The notes: generated by a model from the letters alone, not told the origin. 39,168 nucleotides of DNA from a virus (IMGVR_UViG_3300045988_042241:1-39168), one strand, 5' to 3'; shown: positions 3,331 through 39,168, numbered from the stretch's first letter. Numbers and translations: made by a program.

Positions 3331-3765
3331 CTACCACCGCCAGATGCCGTAGTCGGCGCAGTGGATGTCCTCCCATATGCACCAGACAATTAGCCCCACG
3401 ATCAGCAGGGACAAGCCGAAGATGATCCAACGGTACAGCTTGACGGAGTGGCGGAGGTTGTGGAGCTCTGTTTCCATCAGGCCGATGGTCTGCCGCTTGT
3501 TTTCCAGCCGATGCTCCAGACCATCGGCCCGCTCCCGCAAGGTCTTTTCATCGGCGGTCAGATGGTCACCGATGCTAAAATACCCGTCGAGGGAGACGCC
3601 CAGCACCTTGCAGATGGGGGCCACGGTATAGACGGATGGTGACTTGGAGGCCGCCGAAAAAAATTTTTTGACGGTGCCGACCGGCAAGCCGGCGCTGTCG
3701 GCGATCTCCTGCATGGTAAGATTGAGATTTTCTTTTTTTGTTCTGCACATTTCCCACAAATCCAT
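3331..3765 (-). CDS. XRE-type HTH protein with a coiled coil and a C-terminal transmembrane anchor
   Basis: ATG 3765 with RBS AGAGGGGAAATT. HTH segment LTMQEIADSAGLPVGTVKKF. C-terminal WIIFGLSLLIVGLIVWCIW. Stop lies 2 nt before the int start. Confidence 0.75.
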   Translation of the reverse strand: MDLWEMCRTKKENLNLTMQEIADSAGLPVGTVKKFFSAASKSPSVYTVAPICKVLGVSLDGYFSIGDHLTADEKTLRERADGLEHRLENKRQTIGLMETELHNLRHSVKLYRWIIFGLSLLIVGLIVWCIWEDIHCADYGIWRW

Positions 3766-3989
3766 AATTTCCCCTCTTTTTTTCTCGGTTGCGGCCCTGC
3801 CCCACAGGGTCGACACGAATTTAGGCAAAAATTGTCGAATATGGCAGGCGGATTGCGTATATCCGCACTGCGGTTGCGCTCTGTCGCTTGCACGGACACG
3901 GGCAAGCCTGCTATGCTCAGCTTGCAGACAGGCGATGACCCCCAACACACGCCTCTCACCACGGGCGCTCCAAATCATCGCCGGGACGC

Positions 3990-4040
3990 ACAACGCCCCC
4001 GCCACTGTTGCAGAGGTGACGGGGGCGTTGTTATTTACTT
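3990..4040 (+). terminator. Orphan plus-strand terminator-like hairpin in a gene-free region
   Basis: 12-bp stem ACAACGCCCCCG / CGGGGGCGTTGT, 18-nt loop, followed by TATTTACTTT. No convincing plus-strand gene lies upstream. Confidence 0.4.
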
Positions 4041-4588: not shown

Positions 4589-4661
4589 GCGCTCCACATC
4601 CTATCTGTTAAAATTAGGCCGCAGCTATCGGCCTTTGGGTAACTATGATTGGAGGTACATC

Positions 4662-4799
4662 ATGAGCAGCCAGACCACAAACCGCACCGTGTCCGATTCC
4701 GCCCACGATTACGCGCTGGACCTGTTTGCCACGCTGTCCCCGGCGGCGCAGGCAGAGATCATTGCTCTTGCCGCTGCCGCTTTAGCATCTCCGCAATGA
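4662..4799 (+). CDS. Small protein (45 aa) resembling the C-terminal tail of the adjacent XRE repressor but lacking an HTH
   Basis: GGAGG 6 nt before the ATG. C-terminus LFATLSPAAQAEIIALAAAA compares with repressor IFDQLSPQAQNEIIAEML. The 3' end overlaps the convergent repressor gene by 41 nt. Confidence 0.55.
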   Translation: MSSQTTNRTVSDSAHDYALDLFATLSPAAQAEIIALAAAALASPQ

Positions 4800-5112
4800 T
4801 CTCATTTTGAGCCTGCGGAGATAGTTGGTCAAAAATCCGGGCAAATTCCTGCGTCAGTCCGCCTCCTTCGGGGGGCGGGCTTTTTTCTTCTTTCCCGGTC
4901 AGAATGTATTCCGCCGTGGTTCCCAGCGCTGCCGTAATCTGCGGCAGATACTTGGTGTAGGACTTGGAAGTCCTTTTTTTCCATTGGCTAACTCGCTGTG
5001 GTACAACGCCAATTTCAGCGGCAAAGTCCTTTTGCTCACGGTATTTTTCGTCCACCAGAGCAAAAAGACGGTCTACGGCATCCAATGTAATCACCCCCAG
5101 CAAAGTGTACAA
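4759..5112 (-). CDS. XRE/CI-type HTH repressor candidate
   Basis: HTH segment KDFAAEIGVVPQRVSQWKKR. Divergent from the rightward early genes. Start uncertain (TTG 5112 or a downstream TTG/GTG). Confidence 0.75.
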   Translation of the reverse strand: MYTLLGVITLDAVDRLFALVDEKYREQKDFAAEIGVVPQRVSQWKKRTSKSYTKYLPQITAALGTTAEYILTGKEEKSPPPEGGGLTQEFARIFDQLSPQAQNEIIAEMLKRQRQEQ

Positions 5113-5169
5113 TCACAATTATTGTTATTATGCAATATTTACAAAAATCTAAAATAAAGCAAAATGTTC

Positions 5170-5198
5170 TTGAAATTACAGAAAATGTGATTTATGAT
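5170..5198 (+). promoter_or_regulatory. Sigma-70-type promoter for the island operon
   Basis: TTGAAA, 17 nt, TATGAT. It is followed 5 nt later by CCATCAGGAAT (5203..5213), the same leader as at 7423..7433. Confidence 0.6.
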
Positions 5199-5315
5199 AT
5201 AGCCATCAGGAATAAGCGGAGAGAAAAGAAAGGTTATCGGAATTAACTGTGGTATTGGTGGATTGTGAATGGCAACGTAGATTTTAGGATAATTTGTGGG
5301 ATTTGAGGTGGTTGC

Positions 5316-5816
5316 ATGGCAAATAAAGTTTCTCTTCGCCAGTGGTATATAGAGCATAAAATATGCGTTTCCTGCGGACAGCGTGATGCATTTAACGGGA
5401 GACAGAAGTGCCCAGAATGTTTAGAAAAAGCGACTCTAAATAACATAAAATACAGGAGCCTTGAAAGGGAGCGCAGCTATTACCAGAGAAGAAAAGAAAA
5501 GCGGGATGCCCGGATATCCGCTGGATTATGCCCAATCTGTGGCAAAGCGGCAGTAAAAGGTCAACTGTGCCTTGAGTGCTATATGAAACATCAGAGAGGG
5601 CATGAAAAAGAAAAGCAACAACGCGCATTGCGCGGAGACCCTCGTAGAGAACGTATTAAAAATGGGCTGTGTTGGTTTTGTGATTCTCCGGCTTTAGAGG
5701 GGAAAAAGGTTTGTCAAAAACACTACGACGATATTCAGGCAAGATTTCACAACAGAGGAGGAGATGAACACCCGTGGGCCAAAGACGAAGCGGTGAGGCG
5801 TGCAAAACTCAAATAG
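5316..5816 (+). CDS. Basic protein with three tandem zinc-ribbon modules
   Basis: Modules CVSCG-x12-CPEC, CPICG-x9-CLEC and CWFC-x10-CQKH, each followed by a K/R-rich helix. RBS GAGGTGG. Confidence 0.75.
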   Translation: MANKVSLRQWYIEHKICVSCGQRDAFNGRQKCPECLEKATLNNIKYRSLERERSYYQRRKEKRDARISAGLCPICGKAAVKGQLCLECYMKHQRGHEKEKQQRALRGDPRRERIKNGLCWFCDSPALEGKKVCQKHYDDIQARFHNRGGDEHPWAKDEAVRRAKLK

Positions 5817-6610
5817 AGTCTTTCCGTGAGCATTTAGAGGACAAAGAGCTATCTGATAATACCGTAAGGGCTTACATAACTGCGATGGAACAGTTTTTTT
5901 CATCATTTGTGGAAATATCAAAGAAGAACGGCCTCGATTGGAAACGGGAACTGCAAGAAAAAGGATTGAAAGCGAAATCTATCAACATTAAGCTCAATGC
6001 CTTTAATTCGTTCTGCGGGATGGTTCACGATGATGGAAGCAAAGTCAAGACGATGCGCGTCCATCAGGCTACAGCTGTTAGTAATGTTATATCCGAACAA
6101 GACTACAAAAAGCTGCTGGATGGATTGAAAAATGATGGAAATATGCGCTGGTATTACAATATCAAGTTGCTTGCTTCAACTGGCGCCCGTGTCAGTGAGT
6201 ATGTGCGGCTTAAAAAAACAGATTTTTCAAGAGGATACGCGGAAATGTGGACGAAAGGAAAAATTAGAAGGATTTACATTCCGAAGTCATTTCTGAATGA
6301 AGCTGATGGGTATTATTCGAGTTTTGAGCCGGACGATTTTCTTGCCGTTGGACGAGACGGAGGGCAAATCACGACCAGAGGCGTTTCCCAAATGCTTATG
6401 ACGTTTGCTGCGCGGTATGGAATTGATAAAAAAGTCATGCATCCACACTCTTTTCGGCACATGTTTGCAATTCAGTTCCTGCGGCGGAACAACAACCTAT
6501 CTCTTCTGGCAGATGTTCTTGGGCATTCCAGTGTTTCGACGACAGCAATTTATACGCGGATGACAAAAGAGCAGCAGCAGGACGCAGTTAATAAAACGAT
6601 CAATTGGTAG
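5774..6610 (+). CDS. Second tyrosine recombinase (small Xer-like)
   Basis: Motifs TGARVSE, HPHSFRHMFA and LGHSSVSTTAIYTRM. GTG start overlaps the upstream gene by 43 nt, with no in-frame ATG before M38. Confidence 0.85.
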   Translation: MGQRRSGEACKTQIESFREHLEDKELSDNTVRAYITAMEQFFSSFVEISKKNGLDWKRELQEKGLKAKSINIKLNAFNSFCGMVHDDGSKVKTMRVHQATAVSNVISEQDYKKLLDGLKNDGNMRWYYNIKLLASTGARVSEYVRLKKTDFSRGYAEMWTKGKIRRIYIPKSFLNEADGYYSSFEPDDFLAVGRDGGQITTRGVSQMLMTFAARYGIDKKVMHPHSFRHMFAIQFLRRNNNLSLLADVLGHSSVSTTAIYTRMTKEQQQDAVNKTINW

Positions 6611-6618
6611 GTGTGAAA

Positions 6619-6954
6619 ATGGATATTGAAAGGCTTTACAAGAACTTTATAGCTGCTGGCCAACAGCCGTGTAACAGAGGAGATTCTCAGCTCGGAGCCA
6701 AAATGCATCAGTATAGGACTGCAAAACAGCAGTTGTTTGAAGCTTTAAAAGATGGCTATTTTTCTGGGGAATTATGCTCTGTTCTAGCGGATGAGATTGT
6801 TCAAACAATTTCTGAATCAACGCAGAATCCGGAATGCTTCTGGGGATCTTCCAAAACCGCTAAGAGTAATCAAGCAGTCTTTGTATATGAAAAGAATGAA
6901 CGTCTGTTTGAAGAACTTTTGCGATGCTGGATGGAAAAAGAGACGGTCATTTAG
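6619..6954 (+). CDS. Hypothetical protein, 111 aa (island)
   Basis: ATG 6619 lies just after the recombinase stop, with GGTAGGTG upstream. Confidence 0.6.
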   Translation: MDIERLYKNFIAAGQQPCNRGDSQLGAKMHQYRTAKQQLFEALKDGYFSGELCSVLADEIVQTISESTQNPECFWGSSKTAKSNQAVFVYEKNERLFEELLRCWMEKETVI

Positions 6955-7087
6955 TGGAATCGTCCCATTGGAAATAGACACGCCGACGAACTGCAAGACT
7001 TGGTAATTCGCAAAAATTAGGGTCAAACAGAACTCTGGCAAATTTCTTTGCTGCTCTCCAATATTTCACGATTGATCTTTGGCCCGT

Positions 7088-7330
7088 TCATAAGTGCTCC
7101 TTGCGGTGGCTCTGCGGATCATCCGTGCGGCCCAGCAGGTAGTCTACGGAGCAGTCCAGATAATCGGCAATTTTGGCAAGTGCTTCCAGCCTTGGATAAT
7201 ATCCGCCGGACTGCATACTGGACAGTGTATTAACACTTAGCGAGCAGTCTGACAGCATTTTACCAATGGCAATCTTTTTTGACTTTGCCAACGCCTTTAT
7301 GAGATTCGCAACTTCTTGTGAATTATTCAT
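7088..7330 (-). CDS. Small XRE-family HTH regulator (island)
   Basis: Motifs IGKMLSDCSLSVNTLSSMQSG and YLDCSVDYLLGRTDDP. Divergent from the operator-bearing promoter. Confidence 0.8.
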   Translation of the reverse strand: MNNSQEVANLIKALAKSKKIAIGKMLSDCSLSVNTLSSMQSGGYYPRLEALAKIADYLDCSVDYLLGRTDDPQSHRKEHL

Positions 7331-7371
7331 AAAAACAGCCTCGAAAAATTGTAGCGGTTCATAAAATCATG

Positions 7372-7418
7372 AGAACTTGTGAAAATATATTGATATTCAC
7401 AAGAACTTGTGATATATT
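7372..7418 (+). promoter_or_regulatory. Rightward early promoter with operator repeats
   Basis: TTGATA (7390..7395), 17 nt, TGATATATT (extended -10, 7410..7418). AGAACTTGTGA direct repeats at 7372 and 7402. Dyad TCACAAG-AA-CTTGTGA (7397..7412) fills the spacer. Confidence 0.65.
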
Positions 7419-7452
7419 ATAACCATCAGGAATGAACAACAGGAAAAGATTT

Positions 7453-7478
7453 GAGCGCATTTAATCCGCTCGTTTTTT
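7453..7478 (+). terminator. Weak hairpin plus T-run in the leader between the promoter and the cro-like gene
   Basis: GAGCG-CATTTAATC-CGCTC followed by GTTTTTT. Only 5-6 bp of stem. Confidence 0.35.
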
Positions 7479-7547
7479 CTTCCGCATACCTATTCCTGAC
7501 GCGATTATAACACGCAAAATTTTAAATTGCAAGGAGGGGCGCAAAAT

Positions 7548-7745
7548 TTGAACGCAATACGCGATTTGCGGGAGGCCAAGGGGCTGACCCAAGCGGAGCT
7601 GGCGCGGCGGATCGGCGTCCAGCAGCCGGCCATCGTCAAGTATGAGAGCGGAGATTGTATGCCGCCGCTGGCGCGGGCCTTCCGGCTGGCCCACGCGCTG
7701 GACTGCACGGTGCAGGAGCTGGGTCTGGTGGACACCGGCGCATAA
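7548..7745 (+). CDS. Cro-like small XRE HTH protein
   Basis: AAGGAGGGG upstream of TTG 7548. HTH segment GLTQAELARRIGVQQPAIVKYESG. Confidence 0.75.
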   Translation: MNAIRDLREAKGLTQAELARRIGVQQPAIVKYESGDCMPPLARAFRLAHALDCTVQELGLVDTGA

Positions 7746-7769
7746 CAGGTGAGGAGAGGAGACGGAGAC

Positions 7770-7985
7770 ATGACGTTACAGGACATTGAGCGCATCCCCA
7801 AGGAGTATTTGACTGCGGCGCAGGTGGCCCCGATTTTGGGTGCGGACCCGCAGACCATCCGGATGCAGGCGCGGCAGCGGCCTGACCTGCTGCCATTCCC
7901 GGCGGTGTGCCTCGGGAGCCGGGTCAAGATACCCAAGGAGGCATTTTTGCGGGTCATGCGTGGTCTTGACCTGCGATTAGATTAA
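7770..7985 (+). CDS. Excisionase-family/MerR-like HTH DNA-binding protein
   Basis: RBS GAGGAGAGGAGACGGAG. Motif YLTAAQVAPILGADPQTIRMQARQ followed by GSRVKIPKEAFLRVM. Confidence 0.6.
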   Translation: MTLQDIERIPKEYLTAAQVAPILGADPQTIRMQARQRPDLLPFPAVCLGSRVKIPKEAFLRVMRGLDLRLD

Positions 7986-8006
7986 CACAGAGAGGAGCGC
8001 GAGACA

Positions 8007-8585
8007 ATGGACAAGAGATGCCCTAATTTGTACCAAAGGGCAAGGCTTAGTACCGGTTTGACGCAGGAGCGGGCAGCGGAGCTGCTGGATTTGTCGGTTG
8101 AGAGCCTCAAGCAGTACGAGGGAGACAGGCGGGTGCCGCCGGACGAGACGGTGGCGCGGATGGTGGAGGCGTACCGCTGCCCATGGCTGGCATTGGAGCA
8201 CGCGCAGGCCACGGACCGGCTGGGCGTGCTGCCCAAGGCGGAGCCGAGGCCGCTGCCCATGGCAAGCATCGCCCTCCGCAACCGGCTGCATGACGCCACG
8301 GGGCGGCTGGACGCCCTGCTCCGGATCGCGGAGGATGGCATCATAGACGACAAGGAGCGTCCGGAGTTTGACAGCATTGTGGCGGAGCTGCGGGAGACCA
8401 TGGGAGCCATCTATCAGGTGATCTACTCGGGCGCGGGCACAAAAAGGGACCGCCCTGACGTGGGGACGTCAGAGCGGCCAAAATCGGGAAGTGTGGTAAT
8501 GGATTTTTCGCAAAATCATTATACCACGCAGCCCACGGATTTGGCAAGAGGGAATTTTACCCGGACGGGAGGTGTGCTCCTGTGA
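8007..8585 (+). CDS. XRE-family HTH protein with a C-terminal extension, 192 aa
   Basis: HTH segment GLTQERAAELLDLSVESLKQYEGDRRVP. Confidence 0.75.
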   Translation: MDKRCPNLYQRARLSTGLTQERAAELLDLSVESLKQYEGDRRVPPDETVARMVEAYRCPWLALEHAQATDRLGVLPKAEPRPLPMASIALRNRLHDATGRLDALLRIAEDGIIDDKERPEFDSIVAELRETMGAIYQVIYSGAGTKRDRPDVGTSERPKSGSVVMDFSQNHYTTQPTDLARGNFTRTGGVLL

Positions 8586-8671: not shown

Positions 8672-8685
8672 GGTGAGGGGTATCT

Positions 8686-9525
8686 ATGGCATACGATTTG
8701 ACGCTGGGCGGGCTGTACGCGGTCATCCCGGCCAGAGTGCTGTACGATGAGCGGCTGCGGCCAACGGCCAAGCTGCTGTACGGCGAGATCGTCCGGCTGG
8801 CGCAGAGCAGCGGGTATTGCTACGCAACCAACAAGCAGTTGATGGGCGTGTGCGGCCTCTCGGACAAGTCCGTCTCCGAGCTGGTGGGCCAGCTCCGGGC
8901 GTGCGGGCACATCCGGCTGGAGATGGTGCGGCGGAACGGCGAGAGCGGAGACATTATCCAGAGGCGGATTTTTATCGGGCAGGATTTGGCCAAAAGCGGC
9001 CCGGAAATGGAGGGCGAAACCCCCGAAGGGGGGTATCCCGAAAAATCGGGAGACGTATCCCGAAAAATCGGGAGAGGGTATCCCGAAAAATCGGGAGGTA
9101 TTATAAGTAATAATATAATAAATAATATCCCCCCTATATCCCCCCAAAAGGGGGGAAGCGTGAAAAAGCGGAAACAGAACAAGTCCGTGCCGGAATGGAG
9201 ACCGGAGCGCTTTGAAAAATTTTGGGAATACTACCGGACCCACGGCCGGGACAATGACCGGGCCGGGGCGGTCCGGGAGTGGGACAGGCTCAAGCCGGAG
9301 GATGATCTCATCGACACCATGGCCCGGGCGCTGGCGGCGCAGGCTGCTTCCGACGAGTGGCGGCGGGGCATCGGCATCCCATATGCCTGCCGTTGGCTCC
9401 GCAATGAGCGCTGGAGGGACACCGGCCTGCGGCGGTCCGAATCGGACACCGAGGAGGCCCCGCCCCGGCGGCGCTACATCGGCAAGCGGGTGATCGACGG
9501 GGAGGAGGTAGACGTCTTTGAGTAA
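8686..9525 (+). CDS. Replication initiator / replisome organizer (winged-helix N-terminus)
   Basis: RBS GGTGAGGGG. N-terminal wHTH segment LYGEIVRLAQSSGYCYATNKQLM. C-terminal FEKFWEYY and IPYACRWLRNERW motifs. Iterons lie inside the gene, and it sits directly upstream of dnaB. Confidence 0.7.
   Translation: MAYDLTLGGLYAVIPARVLYDERLRPTAKLLYGEIVRLAQSSGYCYATNKQLMGVCGLSDKSVSELVGQLRACGHIRLEMVRRNGESGDIIQRRIFIGQDLAKSGPEMEGETPEGGYPEKSGDVSRKIGRGYPEKSGGIISNNIINNIPPISPQKGGSVKKRKQNKSVPEWRPERFEKFWEYYRTHGRDNDRAGAVREWDRLKPEDDLIDTMARALAAQAASDEWRRGIGIPYACRWLRNERWRDTGLRRSESDTEEAPPRRRYIGKRVIDGEEVDVFE
9033..9097 (+). repeat. Origin iterons: GTATCCCGAAAAATCGGGAG x3 at 22-23 bp spacing
   Basis: Copies at 9033, 9055 and 9078, each containing the dyad CCCGA-AAAA-TCGGG. 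An AT-rich stretch (9098..9128) and CCCCCC-AAAA-GGGGGG (9140..9155) follow. Confidence 0.75.
9435..9447. repeat. Dispersed palindrome GTCCGAATCGGAC, copy 1 (inside the replication initiator gene)
   Basis: Perfect 13-mer; in frame it encodes RSESDT. Confidence 0.95.
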
Positions 9526-36012: not shown

Positions 36013-36085
36013 CTCTTGATGATATAAATATACCATAAATGGTCTATTTAGTCAAGAGGTTTAGTCGAAATTTTTGGAAAAATTT
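36013..36085 (-). promoter_or_regulatory. Leftward promoter cassette copy 1
   Basis: Minus strand reads TTGACT (36055..36050), 17 nt, TATATT (36032..36027), bracketed by CTCTTGA/TCAAGAG. Near-identical to 37469..37540. Confidence 0.7.
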
Positions 36086-36097
36086 AAGAAAAACGCG

Positions 36098-37468: not shown

Positions 37469-37540
37469 CTCTTGATGATATAAATATACCACAGATGGTC
37501 TATTTAGTCAAGAGCTTTTGCGAAAGTTTTTAAAAAATTT
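37469..37540 (-). promoter_or_regulatory. Leftward promoter cassette copy 2
   Basis: TTGACT (37511..37506), 17 nt, TATATT (37488..37483), with the same CTCTTGA/TCAAGAG bracket. Confidence 0.7.
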
Positions 37541-37543
37541 TAT

Positions 37544-38838: not shown

Positions 38839-39168
38839 ATGTCTCTATCTGATGGTATGCCGACGATGACCATGCCTGTGGCTCCCGCCAACACCTCCGG
38901 CAGCGGAAACGGCTTTGGCTGGGGCGGTGACGGTGCATGGTGGATCATTATCCTGTTTTTGTTTGTTTTTTGCGGCTGGGGCGGCAACGGCTGGGGCAAC
39001 AACGGCGGCAATGGCGGCGGCGTGGTCGACGGCTATGTGCTGACCTCTGACTTTGCCAATGTTGAGCGCAAGATCGACAGTGTAAATCAGGGCCTTTGCG
39101 ACGGATTTTACCAGCAGGCGCAGCTTGTCAACGGCACCAACATGGCGATGGCAAACGGCTTTGCACAG
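38839..39168 (+). CDS. 5' part of the junction-spanning gene (continues at 85..486 in circular coordinates)
   Basis: RBS GAAAGGAGAG. Gly-rich N-terminus with TM WWIIILFLFVFCGW. Open to the window end. Confidence 0.8.
   Translation, partial: MSLSDGMPTMTMPVAPANTSGSGNGFGWGGDGAWWIIILFLFVFCGWGGNGWGNNGGNGGGVVDGYVLTSDFANVERKIDSVNQGLCDGFYQQAQLVNGTNMAMANGFAQ
39085..39168. repeat. Terminal direct repeat copy 2 (identical to 1..84)
   Basis: Same as copy 1. Confidence 0.95.

Follow-up and report, generated by a model that had tools for sequence, protein, structure and literature searches.

A low-GC island between the repressor and cro genes of a temperate gut phage as a probable mosaic of separately acquired modules

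Introduction

Morons, or accessory cassettes, are a concept that arose from comparisons of lambdoid and HK97-type phages, and arrival at gene boundaries followed by spread through homologous flanks is the classical behaviour of such mosaic modules. Free-standing homing-endonuclease genes occur at conserved gene junctions of phages, the Cre-loxP system of P1 is the recombinase by which a phage-plasmid circularises and resolves its replicon, and phages of the P2/186 type have promoter switches whose promoters stand face to face. Here we describe a locus that can be compared with each of these systems. It is a block of low guanine-plus-cytosine (GC) content at positions 5113-7500 of a viral sequence of 39,168 nucleotides (nt; IMGVR_UViG_3300045988_042241:1-39168), called the window below, by which we mean the whole stretch analysed. 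The block, or island, lies between the genes for a cI-like repressor and a cro-like protein. It carries a cassette of three genes (the trio), which encode a zinc-ribbon protein, a tyrosine recombinase and a protein of 111 amino acids (aa), and a separate module with the regulator XRE-80.

Comparison of the island with its relatives suggests, with a probability that we put at roughly two in three, that it is a mosaic of at least three separately acquired pieces, which would have filled a cargo hotspot, the leader between PR and cro of a temperate phage, in at least two separate steps.

Results

A foreign block between repressor and cro

The GC content is 0.27 at positions 5113-5248, 0.43 at 5249-6954, 0.45 at 6955-7038 and 0.42 at 7039-7500, against 0.589 in the remaining window. 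This bears out the sharp drop described in an earlier reading of this DNA (the original prediction), which had also placed the block where the interval between cI and cro is normally short and had proposed a comparison with relatives that lack it. Such relatives exist among the sequences that we collected by scans of IMG/VR, GTDB and metagenomes. In two of them (L017 and L019) the cI gene, whose product shares 80% aa identity with that of the window, is followed by a single promoter with its leader and then by cro within about 190 nt. In the window 2,462 nt separate the start codons of cI and cro, so the island is an insertion relative to those phages. The low-GC block is thus both real and foreign. 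The cI-like repressor, which shows 77-80% protein identity in L005, L017, L019 and L021, is part of the phage backbone and lies outside the island. The GenBank phage collection holds no match to the island even in distant search mode, the sole match being 230 nt long and outside it.

The pieces of the region and their borders are as follows.

4759-5085, minus strand: cI-like repressor, 108 aa from TTG 5085 (maximal open reading frame to 5112); Pfam Phage_CI_repr (weak), PHROG 8 and 4
5170-5198, plus strand: P1, predicted PR-equivalent early promoter, divergent from cI; TTGAAA-17-TATGAT, 10/12 match to consensus
5217-6954, plus strand: trio, three-gene cassette (zinc-ribbon protein, recombinase, 111-aa protein), GC 0.43
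6947-7054, minus strand: 3' remnant of gene Y, homologous to L339 and L091 up to 7054
7023-7472: XRE-80 switch module (XRE-80, operators and P2), a separate module
7023-7091, minus strand: truncated small gene of 22 codons, translationally coupled to XRE-80; homologous to L003 from 7039
7088-7330, minus strand: XRE-80, Cro/C1-type helix-turn-helix (HTH) regulator, 80 aa; Pfam HTH_26 30.2 bits (cut-off 22), PHROG 8
7367-7412, no strand: predicted operators, an imperfect TCATGAGAACTTGTGA at 7367-7382 and a perfect 16-bp palindrome TCACAAGAACTTGTGA at 7397-7412
7390-7418, plus strand: P2, predicted promoter for cro; TTGATA-17-TATATT with upstream TG, 10/12
7504-7532, minus strand: P3, predicted promoter facing P2; TTGCAA-17-TATAAT with TG, 10/12, followed by TCAGGAAT at 7499-7492
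7548-7745, plus strand: cro-like HTH protein, 65 aa from TTG 7548; Pfam HTH_3 E = 4.5e-16; ribosome-binding site (RBS) AAGGAGGGG at 7531-7539

The island is composed of parts that occur separately

Sister strains with a backbone 94-99.8% identical to that of the window (L339, L341-L344 and L091) have the trio in the position that it takes in the window, but neither XRE-80 nor P2. In these strains gene Y (122 aa, minus strand, GC 0.41), which belongs to no family in PHROGs, Pfam or NCBIfam, is intact 3' of the trio and is directly followed by cro. The homology of the window to the sister strains stops at 7054 and restarts at 7473. Both genes that meet at the module junction, gene Y and a small membrane-protein gene whose full form in L003 encodes 58 aa with a C-terminal membrane segment, are truncated in the window, and both junctions of the XRE-80 module fall in short imperfect microhomologies. 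The truncated genes and the sister strains therefore indicate that the window form is derived, the XRE-80/P2 module having replaced the 5' part of gene Y.

The XRE-80 module is found without the trio as well. L001 and L042 have an XRE-80 of 97% identity, which adjoins cI with no trio between the leader repeats, and regulators of its type with their operator promoter lie next to the repressor, recombinase-free between leader repeats, in L001, L042 and L005, which have the window's cI type, and in L003, which has a different one. In these four contigs the module is bounded by a duplicated 43-nt leader, CCACAAAGGACATAGCCCCAAGGACAATATACCACACCGGGGC, which is exact in L001 and has 1-3 mismatches in L003 and L005. 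Because this duplication surrounds a recombinase-free module, the duplicated leader belongs to the XRE/P2 module in these phages, and its sequence tracks the cro type rather than the recombinase. The two copies in L001 lie at 362-404 and 1122-1164, each behind a promoter, and the leader folds as two short hairpins (GCCCCG...CGGGGC and CGCC...GGCG). Between the leaders in L001, and also in L005, L003 and L042, are a 26-aa open reading frame, a 106-aa minus-strand gene, the XRE gene and P2; the 106-aa protein of L001 has no family in PHROGs, Pfam or NCBIfam.

In the window the palindrome TCACAAGAACTTGTGA falls between the -35 and -10 hexamers of P2, with the imperfect copy 30 nt upstream, and L001 has the same operators at 1070-1112. 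With its HTH_26 match and these palindromes in or near the predicted P2, XRE-80 reads as a Cro/C1-type XRE regulator with palindromic operators at a divergent promoter, much as the original prediction had described it.

Distribution of the trio

The trio recurs at 93-97% nucleotide identity in about 15 contigs (L001-L005, L029, L041-L047, L050, L077 and L080), the flanking genes of which are only 75-82% identical to the window. In these contigs it lies directly 5' of the replication initiator gene, after a small membrane open reading frame downstream of a 192-aa regulator, which is equivalent to about position 8680 of the window. The replication genes beside it are of two unrelated types, with 66% and 30% aa identity to that of the window, and the same locus is empty in L018, L019, L020 and L021. 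Diverged trios, with 63-67%, 62-65% and 41-53% aa identity gene by gene, are found between TerL and portal (L083 and L084) and among small early genes (L081, L082 and L345); the 111-aa protein accompanies the recombinase in L081, L083, L345 and L051 at 41-53% aa identity. Three further contigs (L006, L007 and L012) have the first two genes without the third, between a methyltransferase and the portal gene.

Of 14 contexts in which GC content was measured, 13 have a trio poorer in GC than its host phage, with values of 0.43 against 0.59 in all close copies and, to take another case, 0.46 against 0.61. The orientation of the trio is constant, in the same direction as the phage operons in which it is embedded. 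Its presence or absence among collinear relatives and its composition, distinct from that of the host phage, are those of an accessory cassette. The trio is a widely distributed, uncharacterised recombinase module of Clostridia phages, and these occurrences point to it as the part of the island that is actually mobile. The inserted recombinase cassette of the original prediction is therefore retained in part: the block is foreign and its recombinase part appears mobile, but it is not one unit, as its parts occur separately.

Junctions of the trio

The comparison of the TerL-portal hotspot is the most telling result on trio insertion. Among 25 contigs whose TerL is at least 94% identical to that of L083, the junction is empty (33 nt) in eight, and it holds methyltransferase-like cargo (about 640-650 nt) in seven, cargo of about 805-880 nt in five and cargo of about 1,545 nt in five; the trio is present at this junction in L083 and L084 only. 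All cargos join after GGCTGGTATGA and before GG(A/C/T)GGTGATGCCACTTG, that is, at a stop codon and an RBS. Since different cargos have identical joins, the junction type reflects the hotspot itself and selection that keeps the flanking genes intact, and these junctions do not appear to be produced by the enzyme of the cargo. The relatives of L083 that share this hotspot are L093-L115 and L160.

Elsewhere the junctions vary from copy to copy. The left limit of homology to the window is at 5217 in the comparison with L050, at 5230-5232 with L003 and L047 and at 5249 with L001. An 18-mer stands in another order in L003, L045, L046 and L047 and is missing from L001, L043 joins at the RBS with the 5' leader of the cassette lost, and the junction of the window differs again from those of L050, L003, L001 and L043. 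The copies in L083 and L043 consist of open reading frames only, the 5' leader (5217-5315) being missing from both. At the right end, the native C-terminus of the 111-aa protein, CWMEKETVI, is kept in the window, P0160, P0167 and P0168, and those copies that precede the replication gene are cut short by a stop codon of the target.

The diverged trio cassettes have no non-coding DNA in common, and neither a lox-like nor a dif-like inverted repeat is conserved in or beside the trio in the window, L083, L081 or L006. A dif-like site was sought as two inverted arms of about 11 bp with a spacer of 6-8 bp, which gave three candidates against 1.7 expected, none of them conserved, in a search confined to the cassettes and the DNA beside them. 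As no non-coding DNA travels with the trio and its joins are shared with other cargo, insertion looks like ordinary boundary (microhomology) recombination. The trio does not fit the definition of an att-bounded integrative element, as no conserved attP-like site travels with it; a direct repeat around one copy (L050, below) can be read either way.

Proposed history of the island

These comparisons can be accommodated by two filling steps. In the first, a low-GC block made up of the rightward trio operon and the leftward gene Y would have landed just behind P1, a state that would persist in the sister strains. In the second, recombination at short microhomologies would have exchanged the 5' part of gene Y for XRE-80, its operators and P2, which would restore to cro a promoter of its own and create a second promoter-proximal leader motif. 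The trio would be a moron-type cassette that reaches stop-codon/RBS boundaries through recombination of the illegitimate or short-homology kind, then spreads between related phages via homologous flanks and is transcribed from the resident phage promoter; its recombinase would not be the agent of its insertion. In keeping with this history the arrangement is stable: about 27 contigs from different samples show either the window form or the gene-Y form, and none has an inversion or excision variant.

Several observations weigh against this history. L050, the best-preserved copy before a replication gene, has the trio flanked on either side by the same 14 nt in direct orientation, TGGAAAGATAAGGG, which is also what the att core of a tyrosine recombinase would look like, and both the left flank (GAGAAAAGAAAGG) and the right end (GGAAAAAGAGACGG) of the trio in the window resemble it. 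IMG/VR searches with cro and gene Y returned no close relatives and no empty site for the position in the window. In assemblies only majority forms are visible, and rare products of excision or inversion would escape. Finally, the promoters, operators and transcript starts are consensus predictions. As to the repeat in L050, an empty site matching its locus exists in L018 and L019, and the right-hand repeat at the replication-gene locus is there because the native 3' end of the trio, CTGGATGGAAAAAGA, already resembles the target, GGATGGAAAGATAA.

The three trio genes and the possible role of the recombinase

The genes of the trio are the following.

5316-5816, plus strand: triple zinc-ribbon protein, 166 aa, with six CxxC/CxxH knuckles at residues 17, 32, 72, 85, 119 and 133
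5774-6610, plus strand: tyrosine recombinase (Rec278), XerA/XerC/XerD-like, 278 aa, GTG start; PF00589
6619-6954, plus strand: helical protein of 111 aa, third trio gene, no family match

The gene content given by the original prediction is upheld for all three. In the zinc-ribbon protein the six knuckles are conserved: among 26 homologs every cysteine except C88 is invariant, as is H136. Searches of PHROGs, Pfam and NCBIfam gave sub-threshold matches only, including weak ones to Pfam DZR, and Foldseek searches of PDB and BFVD with an AlphaFold2 (AF2) model (pLDDT 87) found no significant structural neighbour. The family occurs more widely than the trio, with the recombinase directly 3' of a zinc-ribbon homolog in only 10 of 79 IMG/VR loci. 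In two of the seven loci inspected (L262 and L302, IMG/VR) distant zinc-ribbon homologs stand directly 5' of a small sigma/LuxR-like HTH gene and a large integrase, which is of the tyrosine type in L262 and of the serine type in L302, contexts that hint at a link between the zinc-ribbon family and recombination modules generally.

The recombinase gene overlaps the zinc-ribbon gene by 43 nt. Its product matches PF00589 (E = 6e-24, 85.1 bits against a cut-off of 27.1), XerA of P. abyssi (PDB 4a8e, E = 1e-22) and NCBIfam XerA_Arch (E = 1e-41), and alignment to 4a8e gives the complete catalytic set R139, K163, H225, R228, H251 and Y260; it has no arm-binding domain. On these matches it can be placed in the tyrosine site-specific recombinase superfamily, as second recombinase of the phage. 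Identity as a Xer equivalog or an integron integrase was rejected, since the scores fall below the NCBIfam equivalog cut-offs (XerA_Arch 143/220, XerC 111.1/335 and XerD 107.4/330 bits) and below those for integron integrases (TIGR02249 61.8/265 and NF011946 38.5/435 bits), a subfamily cut-off that reflects the IntI-specific insertion. The 111-aa protein has no family match in PHROGs, Pfam or NCBIfam, and its AF2 model, a helical bundle (pLDDT 93), no fold match by Foldseek in PDB and BFVD. None of the three proteins matches a PADLOC defence model, and literature searches found no description of the trio module.

The phage encodes a replication initiator with three 22-nt iterons, DnaB, ParA and ParB. 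The iterons, GGGTATCCCGAAAAATCGGGAG, are arranged in tandem at 9031-9097 within the replication-initiator gene (8686-9525) and are probably the origin of replication; together with DnaB, ParA and ParB they suggest a plasmid-like prophage. A 13-nt palindrome, GTCCGA(A/T)TCGGAC (GTCCGAATCGGAC), occurs at at least eight places (9435, 11898, 18404, 20552, 25536, 31187, 35632 and 36098), some of them intragenic, where it encodes R-S-E-S-D (C-terminus of the initiator, N-terminus of ParB). Proteins may bind to it as a dispersed site, of the parS-like or another kind.

We tentatively suggest that the recombinase and its two partners act in trans, most plausibly in a Cre/Xer-like resolution or circularisation of the phage replicon, a role that we regard as possible and more doubtful than not. 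It conflicts with the sporadic presence of the trio among close relatives that share Rep and ParAB and with its terminase-portal location in other phages, and the failure of the cassette searches to identify a recombinase site counts against it too.

Promoters, leader motif and the region before cro

Four further features concern the leaders, the fourth being P3, listed above.

5203-5213, plus strand: first copy of CCATCAGGAAT, predicted transcript start of P1, 4 nt after the -10 hexamer
7423-7433, plus strand: second copy of CCATCAGGAAT, predicted transcript start of P2, 4 nt after the -10 hexamer
7426-7499, plus strand: structured leader or palindromic region between P2 and P3, with a 9-bp closing stem TCAGGAAUG/UAUUCCUGA

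P1, which the original prediction had located and which the consensus match agrees with, corresponds by homology to the one promoter between cI and cro in L017 and L019 and would now drive the trio. P2 is missing from the gene-Y strains and would have come in with the XRE-80 module. P3 is retained upstream of gene Y in L091 and L339 and is presumed to be the gene Y promoter in the sister strains. The promoter scan of this AT-rich stretch gave 11 promoter-like sites where 4.1 were expected, and P1 and P2 therefore count as consensus matches only. A weak candidate inside the trio leader (TTGTGA-19-GATAAT, about 5263-5293) was read from the sequence and not flagged by the scan, and a scan downstream of 6954 found no terminator for the trio.

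The paired promoter-leader segments at the two edges of the block, and the inverted TCAGGAAT at 7492-7499, had been reported before and are present, with an exact CCATCAGGAAT in the same position behind each promoter. With at most one mismatch CCATCAGGAAT has three matches in the window against 0.55 expected, and its TCAGGAAT core has four against 0.89, three of the four being in this region, the inverted copy included. Alignment with the promoters of L001 and L017 places TCAGGAAT 7 nt behind the -10 hexamer at P1 and P2 and 4 nt behind it at P3, and a GGAAAAGA-like element lies 6-9 nt beyond TCAGGAAT at all three promoters. Phages of the other cro type have AAGGACA...AAGGACA at the equivalent place. 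With TCAGGAAT behind three promoters and another motif in the other cro type, the motif is thus tied to promoters and immunity type. TCAGGAAT with its GGAAAAGA-like partner may be an element of the initially transcribed region, or an operator, shared within this immunity type, and CCATCAGGAAT would accordingly be read as a promoter-linked motif and not as an att site.

The 74-nt hairpin at 7426-7499 has a folding energy of -23.3 kcal/mol (z = -5.0), and 0 of 200 shuffled sequences fold as well. Its inner stem-loop is followed by a run of six U and could act as an attenuator before cro, at about 7477. Rfam gave no match for the leader and nothing meaningful in 4600-8100. The right half of the leader, from 7473 on, is native cro-upstream/gene-Y 5' sequence common to the strains without P2, and the leader was for that reason rejected as an uninterrupted ancestral one. 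P2 and P3 converge about 85 nt apart (7390-7532), and their predicted transcripts overlap across the palindromic, terminator-like leader.

Alternative explanations

The 14-nt repeat around the L050 copy, with its matching empty site, would suit a trio that is a minimal, self-integrating, phage-specific element. Its recombinase would insert a 1.7-kb circle into purine-rich stop/RBS (GGAAAGATAAGG-like) sequences, helped by the zinc-ribbon and helical proteins, so that the cassette hops between positions and between unrelated gut Clostridia phages as the recombinase counterpart of a free-standing homing-endonuclease gene. A complete catalytic set, three genes that stay together over 41-67% aa divergence and at least four insertion contexts, purine-rich sequences that are alike at both ends of the window copy and a GC content consistently below that of the host phages all agree with such an element. 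We nevertheless consider it unlikely. No conserved non-coding DNA or inverted-repeat site accompanies the cassette, the cassette searches revealed no core-site architecture of the Xer family, and the junctions vary among copies, one lying at an RBS without the cassette leader. The right-hand repeat is explained by the prior likeness of the CTGGATGGAAAAAGA end to its target, and cargos other than the trio use identical junction points between TerL and portal.

Three models had been offered by the original prediction, all of which fare worse. A single integrative or excisable unit at 5203-7433, bounded by direct CCATCAGGAAT repeats, could draw on the exact 11-nt repeats in the same register behind two promoters, on a circle joined at the repeat, which would put P2 before the trio and divergent from XRE-80, and on the analogous 43-nt repeat around the XRE module in relatives. 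The homology of the trio runs from about 5217 to 6954, however, so that the left CCATCAGGAAT lies 4-36 nt outside it, depending on the relative compared, and the second repeat is 470 nt past its right end, with another module in between. The content is composite, with parts found separately and an internal junction that truncates two genes; the repeats of L001 and L005 flank a recombinase-free module; a third copy of the core, inverted, stands behind P3 outside the unit; and the right half of the P2 leader is native to strains without P2. The gene-Y strains have already largely refuted this unit, and we regard it as quite improbable. A recombinase-controlled switch that inverts a promoter-bearing segment of the immunity region is more improbable still: the recombinase adjoins promoters, and inverted TCAGGAAT copies lie at 7426-7433 and 7492-7499, but these arms of 8-9 nt enclose 58 nt free of promoters, no longer inverted repeats or invertible segment flank a promoter in the region or occur in the 39-kb genome, the roughly 27 contigs hold no orientation variant, and the same trio is found in unrelated contexts without nearby immunity promoters. 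Least probable of all is a hijacker or satellite-type element that parasitises the phage early promoter. Transcription from that promoter, foreign composition and a recombinase would be expected of it, but the island has no genes for replication, packaging redirection or capsid remodelling, the trio measures 1.7 kb and always has the same orientation inside phage operons, and PADLOC and PHROG give no match to a satellite-type family. A mosaic filled in separate steps is thus the reading that we prefer.

Genome and neighbouring features

The window carries 84-nt exact copies at both ends (1-84 = 39085-39168), and another contig (L088) is a permuted version of it at 100% identity. From this it follows that the window holds a whole genome of 39,084 bp, either circular or terminally redundant. 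The host of the phage is probably a member of the Oscillospiraceae. An HTH protein with a hydrophobic, membrane-like C-terminal segment is encoded at 3331-4005 (minus strand), between the integrase and the cI-like gene, and may be a membrane-anchored regulator of the lysogeny module. An AT-rich direct repeat of 74 nt, 85% identical between 36013-36086 and 37469-37542, looks like a duplicated promoter or regulatory region. A contig of 90,510 bp (L085) contains the phage in collinear form across the region near the integrase and shows no junction with host DNA where attP would be expected, which fits an extrachromosomal or concatemeric state or an assembly artefact.

Discussion

On the reading preferred here, the immunity region of a common human-gut phage lineage would have been rebuilt by stacking accessory modules in the leader between PR and cro, a process that can be followed at base-pair resolution, and a repeat that looks like an att site can be a promoter-linked motif. 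Annotators should not call this recombinase gene the integrase of the phage. A trio that proved to be self-mobile, or to act on host DNA, would constitute a new recombinase system with possible use as a tool; one that proved to be a replicon resolvase would add to the evidence for a plasmid-like prophage lifestyle.

Comparison with known systems

The arrangement before cro resembles the P2/186 switches in its two predicted promoters, P2 on the plus and P3 on the minus strand, which point towards each other so that their transcripts would overlap within a palindromic leader, a likeness that rests on promoters predicted in the window. Unlike those switches, the arrangement in the window arose by recent recombination, as the absence of P2 from the sister strains shows. 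With homing-endonuclease genes the trio shares sporadic, compositionally distinct insertion between conserved genes such as terminase and portal; it differs in that its enzyme is a recombinase, with no evidence that it creates its own insertion, and in that its junctions are common to other types of cargo.

The recombinase resembles the dimer resolvases XerA, XerC and XerD in its best sequence matches, its two-domain size (278 aa), the lack of an arm-binding domain and its full catalytic set. It differs from them in being phage-borne and translationally coupled to a triple zinc-ribbon protein, in scoring far under the equivalog cut-offs and in the lack of a dif-like site in or beside the cassette. 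As in P1, a tyrosine recombinase is present in a phage with Rep, iterons and ParA/ParB, and in relatives the trio adjoins the rep gene, in others the terminase. In contrast to Cre-loxP, no lox-like site was found in the cassettes, the trio is dispensable among close relatives, and its recombinase is related to Cre only at the superfamily level.

Morons differ from the trio in several respects. The trio is a conserved recombinase module of three genes, where a moron would be a gene for lysogenic conversion; it lacks an obvious promoter and terminator of its own and uses P1 or the operon in which it lands, and it keeps its three-gene integrity across very different phages. The likeness lies in presence/absence polymorphism, a GC content lower than that of the host phage, insertion at gene boundaries and alternative cargos at a hotspot. 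The island adds one more case to a known class, that of moron-type cargo in a mosaic immunity-region hotspot.

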